From Escherichia phage vB_EcoM_DE17: a DNA stretch of 64,000 bases. Below are positions 14,802 to 21,975 of the stretch, one piece after another. The stretch is from sequence record OP595146.1, one strand, 5' to 3'. The first letter of the stretch is position 1. Every line of letters starts with the position of its first letter. The notes under the pieces were generated by a model, which was not told the origin of the DNA, ran no database searches, and saw only the letters and a program-made list of their open reading frames with translations. The position numbers were made by a program, and so were the translations under genes.

Positions 14802-14878
14802 TTTAGAATCTCCTAGTTTAAGGATTTTACTTAGTGGGGAAGGTCATTCCCTCCCCGTTGATGAGTAATTTAATCTAT
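14802..14878 (-). promoter_or_regulatory. intergenic cassette type A
   Basis: GGGGAAGG...CCCTCCCC hairpin plus initiation region. Confidence 0.55.
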
Positions 14879-15847: not shown

Positions 15848-15920
15848 TTTTTGAGTCTCCTAGTTTAAGGACTTTACTTAGTGGGGAAGGTTATTCCCTC
15901 CCCGTTGATGTGTAATTTAG
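15848..15920 (-). promoter_or_regulatory. intergenic cassette type A
   Basis: GGGGAAGG...CCCTCCCC hairpin plus initiation region. Confidence 0.55.
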
Positions 15921-16877: not shown

Positions 16878-17168
16878 TCAGTTAATTTTCAGCTTTGCAT
16901 GACCTCTCATTGTACGAATGGGGGATGTTAAGGCTACGCGTCTAATATATGCCTTTTTCGTGTGTACATTTGCCTTCCCGATAGTGTTTACACATGTAAA
17001 AAGGTTTATTGGTGAATTTTTTAACTTCAACTGTCTATCAGTCTTCACGCCCCATCTTACAGCAGATTGTTTTCCGTTGTCAACCACTTTCCCGCCTAAC
17101 TTTTTCGCCATAATACGAGCGTCATCACGAGTTTTTGCAGGAATTACAACGTTTTTGATAATAGCCAT
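16878..17168 (-). CDS. hypothetical basic protein (array gene; start set by cassette)
   Basis: The track ORF extends 5 codons into the cassette; the ATG at 17166-17168 sits at the conserved position (MAIIKNVVIPAKTRDDARIMAKKLGG...). Confidence 0.55.
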   Translation of the reverse strand: MAIIKNVVIPAKTRDDARIMAKKLGGKVVDNGKQSAVRWGVKTDRQLKLKNSPINLFTCVNTIGKANVHTKKAYIRRVALTSPIRTMRGHAKLKIN

Positions 17169-17256
17169 TTTTAAGTTCTCCAATTTAGGATTTAGTGGTA
17201 AAGCTCTTTATCTGGGGCTTACTTTATCGAACTATAAGCCCCTTGTAAAGTACTTT
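17169..17256 (-). promoter_or_regulatory. intergenic cassette type B
   Basis: Near-identical to copies at 14513 and 15308. Confidence 0.6.
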
Positions 17257-17637
17257 TTATTTAATTTTGAAGATTGTCACGTAGCCATCACTGCCGATGA
17301 TTTGTGATACCCCAGCTTTTTCTACTTGATAGCCCATATTTTCCAGATGATAGATAGCATCGTCATAACCATATGCACCGCCCTGATAACGTCGCTTATC
17401 ACATCTTACTAAAACCTTTCCACGTCCTGCCAGTGCATTTAGTACAGCTTTTTCACTTGATAGCGTACCATCTATCATGGTTGCCGTGTAATGGTTGATT
17501 TTATTCCCGTTGATATCATACTTGAAATTGAACGAGTGAACAACGATAACGTTACCTTTAAAATTCTCATCAAGTGACTTCTCCAGTGCGTTGCGAAAGT
17601 TGTCTTTATTGATGAATTTAGGTGCACGGTATGCCAT
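17257..17637 (-). CDS. hypothetical protein (first gene of the array)
   Basis: 126-aa ORF preceded by a cassette. Confidence 0.6.
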   Translation of the reverse strand: MAYRAPKFINKDNFRNALEKSLDENFKGNVIVVHSFNFKYDINGNKINHYTATMIDGTLSSEKAVLNALAGRGKVLVRCDKRRYQGGAYGYDDAIYHLENMGYQVEKAGVSQIIGSDGYVTIFKIK

Positions 17638-17705
17638 TTTAGAATCTCCTAGTTTAAGGTTAGTTATTTAGTGGGGAAGGTTATTCCCTCTCCGTTGATG
17701 CAAAT
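17638..17705 (-). promoter_or_regulatory. intergenic cassette type A (most upstream copy)
   Basis: GGGGAAGG...CCCTCTCC hairpin plus initiation region, at the head of the array. Confidence 0.55.
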
Positions 17706-17853
17706 ATTAGATAACCATAGCCAAAGAGTCAAGAAAAATTTTAAAAATATTTTTGAAAAAACTGTAATGGAACGGGCGCACGCGACTACCACAAAACAGA
17801 ACTACAATCAAGAATTATTTTTCAATCCGCTACAAATTTTTCTCTTGACTTTT

Positions 17854-17884
17854 GGGGAGAGGGGGAGTAAGAGGGGAAGAGGGG
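17854..17884 (+). other. G-quadruplex-forming motif (four G4-5 runs)
   Basis: GGGGAGAGGGGGAGTAAGAGGGGAAGAGGGG on the plus strand, in otherwise AT-rich intergenic DNA. Confidence 0.5.
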
Positions 17885-17908
17885 CTTGGCTGGCTATCTA
17901 TAAAAACC

Positions 17909-18086
17909 TACCTGCACAATTCTAAAATGATTTTTCTTGCCCGACCTGAGCGGGGTCTGCACGTTTTGAAAATGAAAAAGCTCTTTGGAGATTACCTGCA
18001 CAATTTGAAAATGAATTTTCTCTTTGGAGTTCAAAATTATCTCTACAGATTTCTCTACAGAACTCTACCTGCACAATCCTAAAATG
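17909..18086 (+). repeat. three direct repeats of ACCTGCACAAT-NNN-AAAATGA
   Basis: Copies at about 17909, 17994 and 18066, spaced 72-85 bp apart; too few and too imperfect for CRISPR. Confidence 0.5.
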
Positions 18087-18160
18087 AAAAAACCCTCCTT
18101 ACCTGAAAAATTTAACAGATAAGAAAGGTTTAGCCTATTGTGAATATTCTACAGAGTTTC

Positions 18161-18946
18161 TTAGTTCTTTGCGTCTAAGAAGGTAACTTCTTGTGATGAG
18201 AAAATCTCCTCGATATCCTCATCAGTTCTTGCATAGATATAAGTATCTGCATCACTGCCAAATGTTACTGCAATCCTGTGATTGCTCTTCGACAGGTGGG
18301 TAACTAGAGCGTTACTTAGAGACATCTTTTCAACCGGAGGGTTACTTTGATGTATCTTGCCTTTTCTTCGTCTGAAGAGGGTAACTGCATCATCAGTGAA
18401 CGTTACTACACCTGCAAAGTATTCTGGTTCACAGTAGTTCTTCCAACCTGAGAGTAACTTGTGGTACAACTCTCCTTCGTAGACATATAGATAAACATCT
18501 ACACTCTTCATCACCTGATTAATGATAACGGTGACGGCTTGAGGGTCTAGTCCACCGATACCTGCACCAATCATAGGTAACCCAACTTTCTTCAACTGAT
18601 TAACTTCACAGTACCTGTTAAGCTGTTTCAAAGATGATTCTAAAGCACTGTATCGGGCATCTTTACCAGTCTTAAGCTGAGTGTAAAGGTTAGCTATACG
18701 GCCTTGTTTTAAACGTGCTACAGAGAAATTACCTAGTAAGTTCTCACAGGGCTTGTGGCCTATGCCACCTGCATACAGATAAACTTCTGTATCAGTCTCA
18801 TATGCTTTTGGGTAAAGTTTAGAAATCTTGTCAGCGATACCTGCACCCATTAAATTCATACAGTTGCAACCGTGACCAATGACGTCAAACTTACCTTTAT
18901 CAAATGCGGCAAAGATATCACCATTGATGATTTTTATAATACCCAT
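18161..18946 (-). CDS. macro-domain (ADP-ribose-binding/processing) protein with C-terminal extension
   Basis: 261 aa; N-terminal IINGDIF...DVIGHGCNCMNLMGAGIA and later GLPMIGAGIGGLDP follow the macro-domain pattern (G-D-I-x, H/N-x-x-N-x-x-x-G-x-G-I-A, second Gly-rich loop). Recalled pattern, not a search hit. Confidence 0.6.
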   Translation of the reverse strand: MGIIKIINGDIFAAFDKGKFDVIGHGCNCMNLMGAGIADKISKLYPKAYETDTEVYLYAGGIGHKPCENLLGNFSVARLKQGRIANLYTQLKTGKDARYSALESSLKQLNRYCEVNQLKKVGLPMIGAGIGGLDPQAVTVIINQVMKSVDVYLYVYEGELYHKLLSGWKNYCEPEYFAGVVTFTDDAVTLFRRRKGKIHQSNPPVEKMSLSNALVTHLSKSNHRIAVTFGSDADTYIYARTDEDIEEIFSSQEVTFLDAKN

Positions 18947-19147
18947 TTAACATCTCTCCCAAGATTCTTTATCTTCTGAAGGTTTTACACGCTGCCCTTC
19001 GTGGTCTACCCAGATGCACCCACAACCTTCACAGATTACTGGCATTGCATAGCCAGCTTTAAAGTCATCTTCAGTGATAAGACCCTTTAAGTCACCTGTA
19101 TCACGTCCGAACATTTCGATAGCACAGTCTTTGCAGAAGTCAGCCAT
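18947..19147 (-). CDS. small Cys-rich zinc-ribbon-like protein
   Basis: 66 aa with C-x-x-C ... C-x-G-C-G-C; translationally coupled to the macro-domain gene. Confidence 0.5.
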   Translation of the reverse strand: MADFCKDCAIEMFGRDTGDLKGLITEDDFKAGYAMPVICEGCGCIWVDHEGQRVKPSEDKESWERC

Positions 19148-19373
19148 GAATAATTACCTCTTGAGTGATGATGCCTTTACCACAGCGACTTTTAAAGTCT
19201 CCTAATGGTTCAGAGAAGAAGTCACGGAAATGGTTACTGCACTCACGTTTCATCACCTTCTTGTAAGTTAACACATCTTCTCCTGTAAACGGGACGACTT
19301 CATGTCTCCCTTTGAATACTGCTGAACTTACAATCTTACGTGTCTTTTTATCTCTGGCTAGTATTACTTTCAT
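19140..19373 (-). CDS. hypothetical protein
   Basis: 77-aa ORF. Confidence 0.5.
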   Translation of the reverse strand: MKVILARDKKTRKIVSSAVFKGRHEVVPFTGEDVLTYKKVMKRECSNHFRDFFSEPLGDFKSRCGKGIITQEVIIHG

Positions 19374-19713
19374 AGTTTACCTTCTCAGTTAGCTCATATA
19401 AATCAACATGCTCAAGACTATCAATGTTGATACCAATCTTTTTGAAGCGTTCTATCACTTCGTTGTCAGTCATCCATATCAGACACCAATGATTGTGGAT
19501 GGATTCTTCAAGAAGGTCAACACAATCTTTAAAAGTTTTTGTATCACTTCTTGTTCCGACTACTGCGATTGTCCCATACAACCACTTACCATTACCATAA
19601 GATACTTGTGCTACGCCAACTTCTTTATCTTTCTCGTAGTAAACGGCTACAAAGTCTCTTCCATTAATCTGCATTTGTAAGTTCCTCTGTTGGTAATTCA
19701 CCATTTTCAGCAA
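19348..19713 (-). CDS. hypothetical protein (start may be the internal ATG at 19674)
   Basis: 121-aa ORF; 50-nt overlap with the upstream gene if the longest start is used. Confidence 0.5.
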   Translation of the reverse strand: MLKMVNYQQRNLQMQINGRDFVAVYYEKDKEVGVAQVSYGNGKWLYGTIAVVGTRSDTKTFKDCVDLLEESIHNHWCLIWMTDNEVIERFKKIGINIDSLEHVDLYELTEKVNYESNTSQR

Positions 19714-19978
19714 AGTACTGAAGGTATGGCAATAACTCTTTCACCTGTTCTTGGTTGAGTTTCATTCTTTGGTTACCTACAAAATCTTTGCCTACTAATG
19801 CTGGGATATCAAGTGTTTTCCAGCCACCATCTAGGTACTGAACAGAGACCTCTTTAGCACCTAACCAAATACATGGTTCATATGATGAACTCTCTTGTAA
19901 AGTACAAATTTCCCCTTTAGCATCTTTAAATTCTGCATAAGAAAATCCACGATTTGTTGGCTGGAATTGCATAATCAT
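19664..19978 (-). CDS. hypothetical protein
   Basis: 104-aa ORF. Confidence 0.5.
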   Translation of the reverse strand: MIMQFQPTNRGFSYAEFKDAKGEICTLQESSSYEPCIWLGAKEVSVQYLDGGWKTLDIPALVGKDFVGNQRMKLNQEQVKELLPYLQYFAENGELPTEELTNAD

Positions 19979-20244
19979 TTCCTCGTTTTGATAACTGCTA
20001 AGATTTCTTTAGAGTCTGGTAAGAACCATGTGTAGTGATTCTCTTTGATTTCTGGATGAGTGTCAACCTTTATTTTGCACTCTTTACCAACGTGCTTAAG
20101 CTGTGCTGTGACACCTTGCATAAAGATATGACACATCACATTATCCATAATGGTTGGTAAGAAGTCAATTCGCATATAAGTTTCTTTTGGTCGTGGTAAC
20201 AGTAAGTAACCCTCTACGTAAAAAGTATCTTCATTCTCTGTCAT
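19975..20244 (-). CDS. hypothetical protein
   Basis: 89-aa ORF. Confidence 0.5.
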   Translation of the reverse strand: MTENEDTFYVEGYLLLPRPKETYMRIDFLPTIMDNVMCHIFMQGVTAQLKHVGKECKIKVDTHPEIKENHYTWFLPDSKEILAVIKTRK

Positions 20245-20510
20245 TGCTGTTTATTTCCTAATAAAATCATATCAATAAGGTTATTAGCTTTGATTGTGCA
20301 CTGGTAAAAACCATCACGATAAAACTCAAGGGCTGCTGCCACATCACTACCGGTATTACCTTTGATAGTGAATCTTGACTCCTCTTGAGTGTACTTGTCA
20401 CTCTCACTTACTTGGGAGTTTTTGAATGTACTGTTCACTTTGTTCGTTGAACACCCTGACATAATTATCAGTAACACAAACATTATAAAACTCTGGCTTA
20501 GTTTTTTCAT
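20241..20510 (-). CDS. putative o-spanin (Rz1-like outer-membrane lipoprotein)
   Basis: 89 aa; signal peptide with lipobox-like IIMSGC; starts inside the upstream gene in another frame, the classic Rz/Rz1 layout. Confidence 0.5.
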   Translation of the reverse strand: MKKLSQSFIMFVLLIIMSGCSTNKVNSTFKNSQVSESDKYTQEESRFTIKGNTGSDVAAALEFYRDGFYQCTIKANNLIDMILLGNKQQ

Positions 20511-20803: not shown

Positions 20804-21283
20804 TTAACCGAGGACTTTAGCAAGGATATTTGCAGCCATCGAAGAAGCTTTTGCAGCAGCAACTACGCCAGCTTTGACAGTGCTATCCTTAATAGCAGAT
20901 ACCGTTGCAGCATCAGTAAAGAGATAAGTGATTGTTTTAGAACCACTCGTAAAGGAAAGCATAAGAGTAGTTTCCAGATTGAAAGAGCGATACGGAGCAC
21001 CTTCTTTAACGATACCTTCAGCACCTAACTCTGAAGCCTTACCCATATCATAGATAGTCATCAGGTTTTCTTTGTGTGCAGTCGTTGAACCAGCACCTTT
21101 TACGTGCTTTTTAACATTCAACAATGCACGATATTCACGAATGCTGCCATCAGCTTTTACATTAACAGCACGGAAAATTTTACCTTCAAAGTTACCTTGA
21201 ATCATTTTACGAACTACTTCAGATTTGTTTGCCGTATCGTCCAGTGCTACCGTAATGATATTGTTCATAAGTTTTTCTCTCAA
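20804..21283 (-). CDS. hypothetical protein (start possibly at MNNIITV)
   Basis: 159-aa ORF. Confidence 0.55.
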   Translation of the reverse strand: MREKLMNNIITVALDDTANKSEVVRKMIQGNFEGKIFRAVNVKADGSIREYRALLNVKKHVKGAGSTTAHKENLMTIYDMGKASELGAEGIVKEGAPYRSFNLETTLMLSFTSGSKTITYLFTDAATVSAIKDSTVKAGVVAAAKASSMAANILAKVLG

Positions 21284-21975
21284 TGTTTAACTAACATGGT
21301 TTTAATGTGTGGAAGGATTCTGTTAACCTTCTGAACATTCTTCTCTGTATCTTCTATAAAACATACTATATTAAAATAAGGAAGAATGCAAGATTGAATC
21401 ATCCTCACTTTCAAACTTTCTGCACTTATAGAGTTAGTTCCAAAACCACGCATAAAAAGCATGTAATCATGCTCTATGTAATGCCTTAAAAACATCTCAG
21501 TAGGTACTCTCTGAGATTCACCCCTCGCTGTCAAGAGTCCAATGGTAGCATGATTAGAGATTGCATCAATAATATTGAAAACATATGTTGGTTTTGCACT
21601 TACAGAGTCAAGCAAATTAGTGTACTGTGAAAATGACCCATCAATCAGTTCCGTTGAGCAATCTTCGTGATTAAAATTTGTAAGAACACCATCAATATCT
21701 GCTAAGATGAGGTTACCTTTTTCTACAAGGTCTTTATTAACTATGACTAAACTGTCACGTCTTACACCTATAGATTGCCCCGTCTCTTTATCCACAACGT
21801 TCACAATTGGTTGTGATGTGTGGAACTCTTCAAGTGAACATACAACTTCTCTTGCAGTGTCTTCAAAATCCCTGCACTGTTCTGAAGTCCATACACAGGA
21901 ATCAAGACCTAACTCATGAGGGTGCAAGTCATAAGCATGGCACAATATTTCATCAGACTTTCTTAATTTTTTCAT
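21280..21975 (-). CDS. putative HAD-like hydrolase / nucleotidase
   Basis: 231 aa; ADIDGVLTN resembles HAD motif I (DxDGxL) and GLLTARGE motif II. Weak, motif-only. Confidence 0.4.
   Translation of the reverse strand: MKKLRKSDEILCHAYDLHPHELGLDSCVWTSEQCRDFEDTAREVVCSLEEFHTSQPIVNVVDKETGQSIGVRRDSLVIVNKDLVEKGNLILADIDGVLTNFNHEDCSTELIDGSFSQYTNLLDSVSAKPTYVFNIIDAISNHATIGLLTARGESQRVPTEMFLRHYIEHDYMLFMRGFGTNSISAESLKVRMIQSCILPYFNIVCFIEDTEKNVQKVNRILPHIKTMLVKH

Follow-up and report, generated by a model that had tools for sequence, protein, structure and literature searches.

A probable AdfM-type macro-domain protein with an orphan C-terminal domain in Felix O1-like phages

What does a macro-domain protein with a C-terminal extension do as the final gene of a long phage operon, and on which ADP-ribosylated substrate would it act? 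We addressed this question in Escherichia phage vB_EcoM_DE17 (record OP595146.1), of which a stretch of 64,000 nucleotides, here called the window, was analysed. The window belongs to a Felix O1-like phage (Ounavirinae, Felixounavirus); positions 17000-20500 match Escherichia phage KEP3 at 99.4% identity and about 190 phage records from Escherichia, Salmonella, Shigella and Citrobacter at DNA identities of mostly 90-95%. An earlier note on this DNA had pointed to an open reading frame (ORF) of 261 aa at 18161-18946 and a Cys-rich ORF of 66 aa at 18947-19147, and both are present, on the minus strand. The first, with its stop codon at 18161-18163, encodes the macro-domain protein; more than 190 Felixounavirus records match its DNA at 94-99% identity. 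Comparing sequences, we consider it probable that this protein is the Felixounavirus AdfM, a DNA ADP-ribosyl glycohydrolase that would defeat the DarTG2 system. The macro annotation is already in public records, where related phages carry the gene in GenBank as 'macro domain-containing protein', 'phosphatase' or 'O-acetyl-ADP-ribose deacetylase', and the function of the family was published in 2025-2026; the new element here is the orphan C-terminal domain fused to the macro domain in Ounavirinae.

Fold and active site of the macro domain

The N-terminal part of the protein matches the Pfam Macro model (PF01661) with E=1e-7 and 32.3 bits, where the gathering cut-off is 22; residues 25-141 cover positions 2-117 of the 118 in the model. 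An AlphaFold2 (AF2) model of the full-length protein, built on 22 homologs, has a mean predicted local distance difference test score (pLDDT) of 92.3 and a predicted template modelling score (pTM) of 0.90. In a Foldseek search of PDB, with template modelling (TM) scores normalised to the target, the best matches are TARG1 (4j5q and 4j5s, TM 0.81-0.85), Thermus aquaticus DarG (5m3e, 0.80) and Mycobacterium tuberculosis DarG (5m3i, 0.77), and the probability is 1.00 for the TARG1 and DarG macro-domain entries. The search returned 240 PDB matches at E<=1e-3; 49 of the best 50 are macro domains, the exception being the designed hydrolase 4etj. A profile of the family, compared with PDB sequences, likewise finds TARG1 (3.8e-16), SCO6735 (5e3b, 1.2e-14), M. 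tuberculosis DarG (1.4e-14) and BT1257 (2afc and 2fg1, about 1e-13), as well as yeast Poa1p (6e-12), a remote match that is weaker than those to TARG1, SCO6735 and DarG. The top curated model is DarG in both NCBIfam (2e-12) and PADLOC (3e-13), over the macro part only. The Pfam score above threshold, the predicted structure and the PDB fold matches together bear out the earlier assignment of a macro fold.

The limits of this domain had been drawn too short. The boundary, previously set at about residue 130, lies at about residue 157, as the last macro strand of the AF2 model spans residues 150-155 and both T4 Tk.4 and TARG1 align to about residue 157. The C-terminal extension is therefore about 104 residues long instead of about 130. 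Evidence from Pfam, AF2, Foldseek, the PDB profile search and BLASTP thus places the macro domain (residues 1-157) at 18476-18946 and the C-terminal domain (residues 158-261) at 18164-18475, both on the minus strand.

The ADP-ribose-binding loops are HGCNCMNLMGAGIA (residues 25-38) and PMIGAGIGG (residues 124-132). Across the 22 homologs, M33, G36 and A38 of the MGAGIA loop and P124, I126, G127, G129, I130 and G132 of the PxIGAGIGG loop are invariant, as are the HGxNC (N28) and NLYTQ (Q90) motifs; in homologs down to about 30% identity, all four motifs are invariant or nearly so. HMMER alignments put Q90 at the position of the TARG1 catalytic residue K84 (K80 in DarG) and G131 at that of TARG1 D125. 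These sequence positions therefore set the window protein apart from catalysts of both the TARG1 and the DarG type.

The Gln-type arrangement has a precedent in SCO6735 of Streptomyces coelicolor (PDB 5E3B). SCO6735 has Gln85 and Asn27 at its catalytic positions, Gln85 being equated with TARG1 K84; it hydrolyses the thymidine-linked ADP-ribose (dT-ADPr) that DarT makes on DNA and protects cells against DarT, and its Q85A and N27S variants are inactive (PMC9411070). Set beside that work, the TARG1 alignment shows the same replacement of Lys by Gln together with a conserved Asn in the invariant Q90/N28 pair, and the sequence relationship to SCO6735 and BT1257 is detectable with the family profile. 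The two proteins thus share a macro domain of the ALC1-like class with Gln at the Lys position and a supporting Asn; however, SCO6735 is cellular, has one domain only and lacks a C-terminal domain, and its mobile loop, which bears Lys89 and Lys94, is longer; its sequence relationship to the window protein is remote.

DarG2 (PDB 5M31, 5M3E and 5M3I) offers a similar two-domain layout with an N-terminal macro domain, and its fold matches at a TM of about 0.8. Its catalytic Lys80 (in T. aquaticus and M. tuberculosis), in contrast, is Gln90 in the window protein, the C-terminal domain of which does not align with the DarT-binding half of DarG, and no darT adjoins the gene. We rejected the identification of the protein as a true DarG: NF048014 is matched at 47.1 bits against a cut-off of 250 and over model positions 1-149 of 338 only, and the PADLOC DarG model over positions 2-145 of 329; the missing catalytic Lys, the non-aligning C-terminal half and the gene context were further grounds. 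The genes beside the macro gene include no darT and comprise small phage proteins without Pfam matches, spanins and rIIA/rIIB, as annotated in relatives.

Kinship with T4 Tk.4 and the proposed function

Using the macro domain as a tblastn query, we found homologs in 2,851 phage records, among them T4 Tk.4, which aligns by BLASTP over residues 3-157 at 34% identity (E=4e-24). Both proteins are assigned to PHROG 335 (E=3.5e-112 for the window protein and 1.3e-65 for Tk.4), and they have identical HGCNC and NLYTQ motifs. A transposon screen identified tk.4 as the sole T4 gene conditionally required on E. coli expressing DarTG2, and T4 becomes sensitive to DarTG2 once tk.4 is cleanly deleted; the gene received the name adfM, short for anti-DarT factor, macro domain (bioRxiv 10.1101/2025.11.20.689424). 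Because this homolog is genetically required for DarTG2 resistance, a counter-defence role in reversing DarTG-type DNA ADP-ribosylation, one of several roles raised in the earlier note, appears to be the best-supported reading of the window gene. Tk.4 and the window protein have homologous macro domains, and in both cases the gene sits among the early accessory genes of a virulent enterobacterial myovirus. They differ in that Tk.4 is a stand-alone macro domain of 155 aa whereas the window protein, at 261 aa, has an extra folded domain of 104 residues, and in that the genetic phenotype, DarTG2 sensitivity on deletion, belongs to Tk.4 only.

A further set of phage macro proteins, from chimalliviruses, was independently also named AdfM; these remove DarT2-made ADP-ribose from DNA and keep the catalytic Lys (PMC13309987). 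PhiKZ gp104, compared here by description only, is like the window protein a phage macro-domain protein, and it counters DarTG2 by removing ADP-ribose from DNA with a DarG-like fold (PMC13309987). It differs in keeping the DarG-type Lys (N23/K78), where the window family has Gln, and in being imported into the phage nucleus. In line with an AdfM function, T5 is described as DarTG2-sensitive (bioRxiv 10.1101/2025.11.20.689424), and a spread sample of 60 of the 2,851 records with macro-domain homologs included no T5 record.

We infer that the window gene probably encodes an orphan-antitoxin-like enzyme made early in infection. Its macro domain would bind the ADP-ribose that host DarT2 puts on thymidines of single-stranded phage DNA and would hydrolyse the N-glycosidic link, by which replicable DNA would be restored and DarTG2 abortive infection defeated. 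Catalysis would probably be of the SCO6735 type, with Gln90, held by Asn28, positioning the distal ribose and the water, whereas DarG and TARG1 use Lys.

Several points weigh against this assignment. Where DarG, TARG1 and chimallivirus AdfM have their catalytic Lys, the window protein has Gln, a residue that the non-catalytic ALC1 macro domain has as well (PMC9411070). The score of the window protein against the DarG model is far below the family cut-off (47 versus 250 bits). The mechanism of T4 Tk.4 was itself deduced from structural similarity in the source paper (bioRxiv 10.1101/2025.11.20.689424), and literature searches pairing Felixounavirus or Felix O1 with DarT or a macro domain turned up nothing relevant. 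Moreover, some family members with the NLYTQ motif may act on small molecules, since one metagenomic member (P0027, 339 aa) carries a fused cREC_REC domain (Pfam; cyclic-phosphate processing receiver), for which small phosphate derivatives of ADP-ribose are the predicted substrates (PMC9503650).

This fusion favours an alternative in which the window enzyme processes small ADP-ribose derivatives, either as a Poa1p-like ADP-ribose-1''-phosphate phosphatase or an O-acetyl-ADP-ribose deacetylase, with by-products of RNA repair or of NAD turnover as substrates, or by degrading ADP-ribose-derived (Thoeris-type) immune signals. The GenBank and PHROG annotations 'phosphatase' and 'O-acetyl-ADP-ribose deacetylase' and the family-profile match to yeast Poa1p point in the same direction, and a comparative-genomics survey made the case for small ADP-ribose derivatives as the main targets of phage macro domains (PMC9503650). 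The same operon also holds, 2.3 kb upstream of the macro gene, a gene for a 231-aa protein (21280-21975, minus strand) that is a polynucleotide kinase by annotation in related phages; the window protein itself has no Pfam match at E<=0.01, and two distant relatives (loci L003 and L004) likewise conserve HAD_PNKP-type genes upstream of the macro gene. However, the annotations are transferred names, the N/Q active-site pair fits the DNA dT-ADPr hydrolase SCO6735, and the neighbouring genes examined included no Tpt1/KptA-type enzyme that would generate ADP-ribose 1'',2''-cyclic phosphate (Appr>p). As the only known phenotype in the family, that of T4 Tk.4, is DarTG2 sensitivity, we regard this alternative as unlikely, and for the same reason the two other readings of the macro protein considered below are less well supported than an AdfM function.

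One of these holds that the enzyme reverses ADP-ribosylation of protein or RNA, laid down by another host toxin or defence ADP-ribosyltransferase (ART) or by a phage ART that it tunes. Human TARG1 (also OARD1; PDB 4J5Q and 4J5S) is the best structural and sequence match in PDB, SCO6735 also de-modifies protein substrates (PMC9411070), and macro domains are promiscuous across substrate classes (PMC9503650). Yet the Lys84/Asp125 dyad that TARG1 uses on Glu/Asp-linked protein ADP-ribose is Gln90/Gly131 in the window protein, and neither the neighbouring genes that we examined nor the annotated left 50 kb of phage HY02 revealed an ART. We give this reading little credence.

The C-terminal domain

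The C-terminal domain comprises one helix, six beta-strands and a terminal helix in an orphan fold. These helix and strand elements, predicted in the full-length AF2 model at a local pLDDT of 88-95, recur when the domain is modelled in isolation (pLDDT 77), and, because the pTM of the full-length model is high, the prediction suggests that this domain packs rigidly on the macro domain. The long form of the protein (at least 80% coverage) was found in only 269 of the 2,851 phage records; the extension thus seems restricted to Felixounavirus and its Ounavirinae-type relatives, together with a few metagenomic contigs of the same synteny.

No relatives of the domain were found beyond its own family. 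Residues 158-261 have no match in Pfam; a profile of the domain gave nothing better among PDB sequences than BamB (0.07) and ribosomal protein S17 (0.43), both noise; among 1.84 billion representatives, phmmer found no relatives outside the family; a profile search of a 5.8-billion-protein set recovered only a family fragment; and among the BFVD viral models Foldseek matched nothing but the homolog from phage SUSP2, which belongs to the family itself. No alignment was obtained with the DarT-binding half of the NCBIfam and PADLOC DarG models. Two candidates were set aside, namely P0033 (321 aa, phmmer E=5.7e-4), a low-complexity tandem-repeat artefact, and an inorganic diphosphatase identity for the region (NCBIfam E=0.099), which is noise. 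The earlier statement that this part of the protein has no recognisable domain holds across the Pfam, PDB profile, phmmer, large-set profile and Foldseek searches.

The domain is under purifying selection yet evolves faster than the macro domain. Between the window and Pr103Blw, the ratio of nonsynonymous to synonymous substitution rates (dN/dS) is 0.185 in the C-terminal domain versus 0.027 in the macro domain (about 7-fold), and its identity drops to about 20% where the macro domain holds 40-50%. By analogy with DarG, whose second domain binds the DarT toxin (PMC13309987 among sources), we infer that the rigidly packed C-terminal domain may be an accessory module that binds the single-stranded DNA substrate, or one that binds and blocks the toxin. 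A more far-reaching version would make it a new toxin- or single-stranded-DNA-binding module, giving a two-pronged, convergent 'orphan DarG', or one that retargets the macro domain to an ADP-ribosylated substrate or defence other than that of single-domain AdfM; we think this doubtful. If true, a single 'orphan DarG' protein would remove the mark from DNA and also act on DarT directly, by neutralising or locating it, and the rapid C-terminal divergence would reflect an arms-race interface.

The same divergence, as an arms-race interface might show, is compatible with a non-catalytic binder, in which the Gln macro domain would bind ADP-ribosylated DNA or DarT while stoichiometric blocking of the toxin would fall to the C-terminal domain; such a protein would mimic an antitoxin and hydrolyse nothing. 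The non-catalytic ALC1 macro domain likewise has Gln at the catalytic position, the catalytically dead Q85A variant of SCO6735 still inhibits DarT by interaction (both PMC9411070), and DarG binds DarT through its second domain. For the enzyme to be a binder alone nevertheless seems improbable to us.

Genomic setting and implications

The macro gene comes last in a long operon that runs leftward at the genome end, is led by rIIA and rIIB and continues through the spanins to the 66-aa gene and the macro gene, a setting consistent with an AdfM function; the operon also encodes SLT-like and polynucleotide-kinase-like proteins. Since both genes of the pair lie on the minus strand, the Cys-rich ORF (19147-18947) does not follow the macro gene, as had been proposed, but precedes it. 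The macro gene had also been placed immediately downstream of an array of small genes; it is the array that is transcriptionally downstream. On the coding strand, the junction between the 66-aa and macro genes reads TGT TAA ATG GGT, so that the stop codon abuts the start codon, and a Shine-Dalgarno-like run, GGGAGAG, lies inside the 3' end of the 66-aa gene, which itself overlaps the preceding 77-aa gene by 8 nt.

The 66-aa protein, assigned to PHROG 2210 (function unknown, E=1.1e-40), carries invariant C5, C8, C39 and C42 in a CxxC...CxxC pattern compatible with a zinc ribbon. Its homologs are spread well beyond the macro gene. T5 ORF059 (L007:1501-1701), which is 58% identical, lies beside an HNH homing endonuclease in a tRNA region; rV5 ORF26 (L008:1501-1701), 68% identical, is the last gene before a terminator; and a homolog in a Pseudomonas siphovirus sits among replication genes. 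No macro gene adjoins any of these three. Identities of 58-68% across three unrelated virulent phage families (Felix O1-like, T5-like and rV5-like) are unusually high for a small accessory gene and suggest horizontal spread. Conversely, Erwinia phage Panisse (Ounavirinae) encodes the long macro protein but leaves too little space upstream to fit a 66-aa gene, and locus L004 has it without a 66-aa gene immediately upstream. A metagenomic relative with a macro protein of 35% identity has a non-homologous 63-aa CxxC...CxxC ORF (L003:4810-5001) directly upstream with a 1-nt overlap, in the same position relative to the macro gene as the 66-aa gene of the window. That the 66-aa and macro proteins form an obligate two-component unit, a notion favoured by their abutting stop and start (TAAATG), by the retention of the pair in Felixounavirus and in a relative with a macro protein only 40% identical, and by the CxxC..CxxC ORF at the same position in the metagenomic relative, is very improbable given the 835 phage records with the 66-aa protein versus 269 with the long macro protein, the T5 and rV5 copies, Panisse and L004, and the tight coupling that is the rule for every gene of the operon. 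Instead of the coupled functional partner envisaged earlier, the distribution of the 66-aa protein therefore marks it as an independently distributed small phage gene that is not dedicated to the macro protein.

Between the macro gene and the small-gene array lies a non-coding gap of about 520 bp that holds direct repeats and a promoter-like site. The repeats, CATTTTNRAATTGTGCAGGTA, occupy 17897-18102 (minus strand) just 3' of the macro gene as three near-exact copies (3 matches against 0.04 expected) and a degenerate fourth, spaced 39-84 bp apart; in one related GenBank record, a probably spurious plus-strand ORF is annotated over this region. We looked for an intrinsic terminator-like site after the macro gene and found none. 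A sigma-70-like match, TTGACT-17-TAATAT, at 17703-17732 (minus strand) is the predicted start of the small-gene array and end of the macro operon. It is followed by a conserved leader block, GGAGAGGGAATAACCTTCCCCAC, at 17671-17693 (minus strand), which recurs at 14834 and 15881. In all, the block GGRGAGGGAATRACCTTCCCCAC, with hairpin potential, lies upstream of small genes at 14834-14856, 15881-15903 and 17671-17693 (minus strand), and, as the 17671 copy follows the promoter-like site, it looks like a repeated promoter/leader cassette of the array. Its recurrence explains artefactual plus-strand ORFs starting MGKVIPSPLM. Within the array, a 101-aa ORF (16878-17183, minus strand) has a weak, sub-threshold BRCT match (E=0.0038, 17.9 bits against a cut-off of 21.3).

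Typing, biocontrol and therapy of Salmonella and E. coli make wide use of Felix O1-like phages. No result here overturns current understanding. An AdfM-type enzyme in these phages would extend the AdfM family to another major phage group, and the homologs would provide a large natural set of Gln-type, SCO6735-like active sites, bearing on how DNA is de-ADP-ribosylated without a catalytic lysine. The orphan C-terminal domain would be a compact candidate for a new accessory function, for example toxin binding or DNA targeting. For the phages themselves, carriage of such an enzyme predicts resistance to DarTG2 and may help explain their host range.

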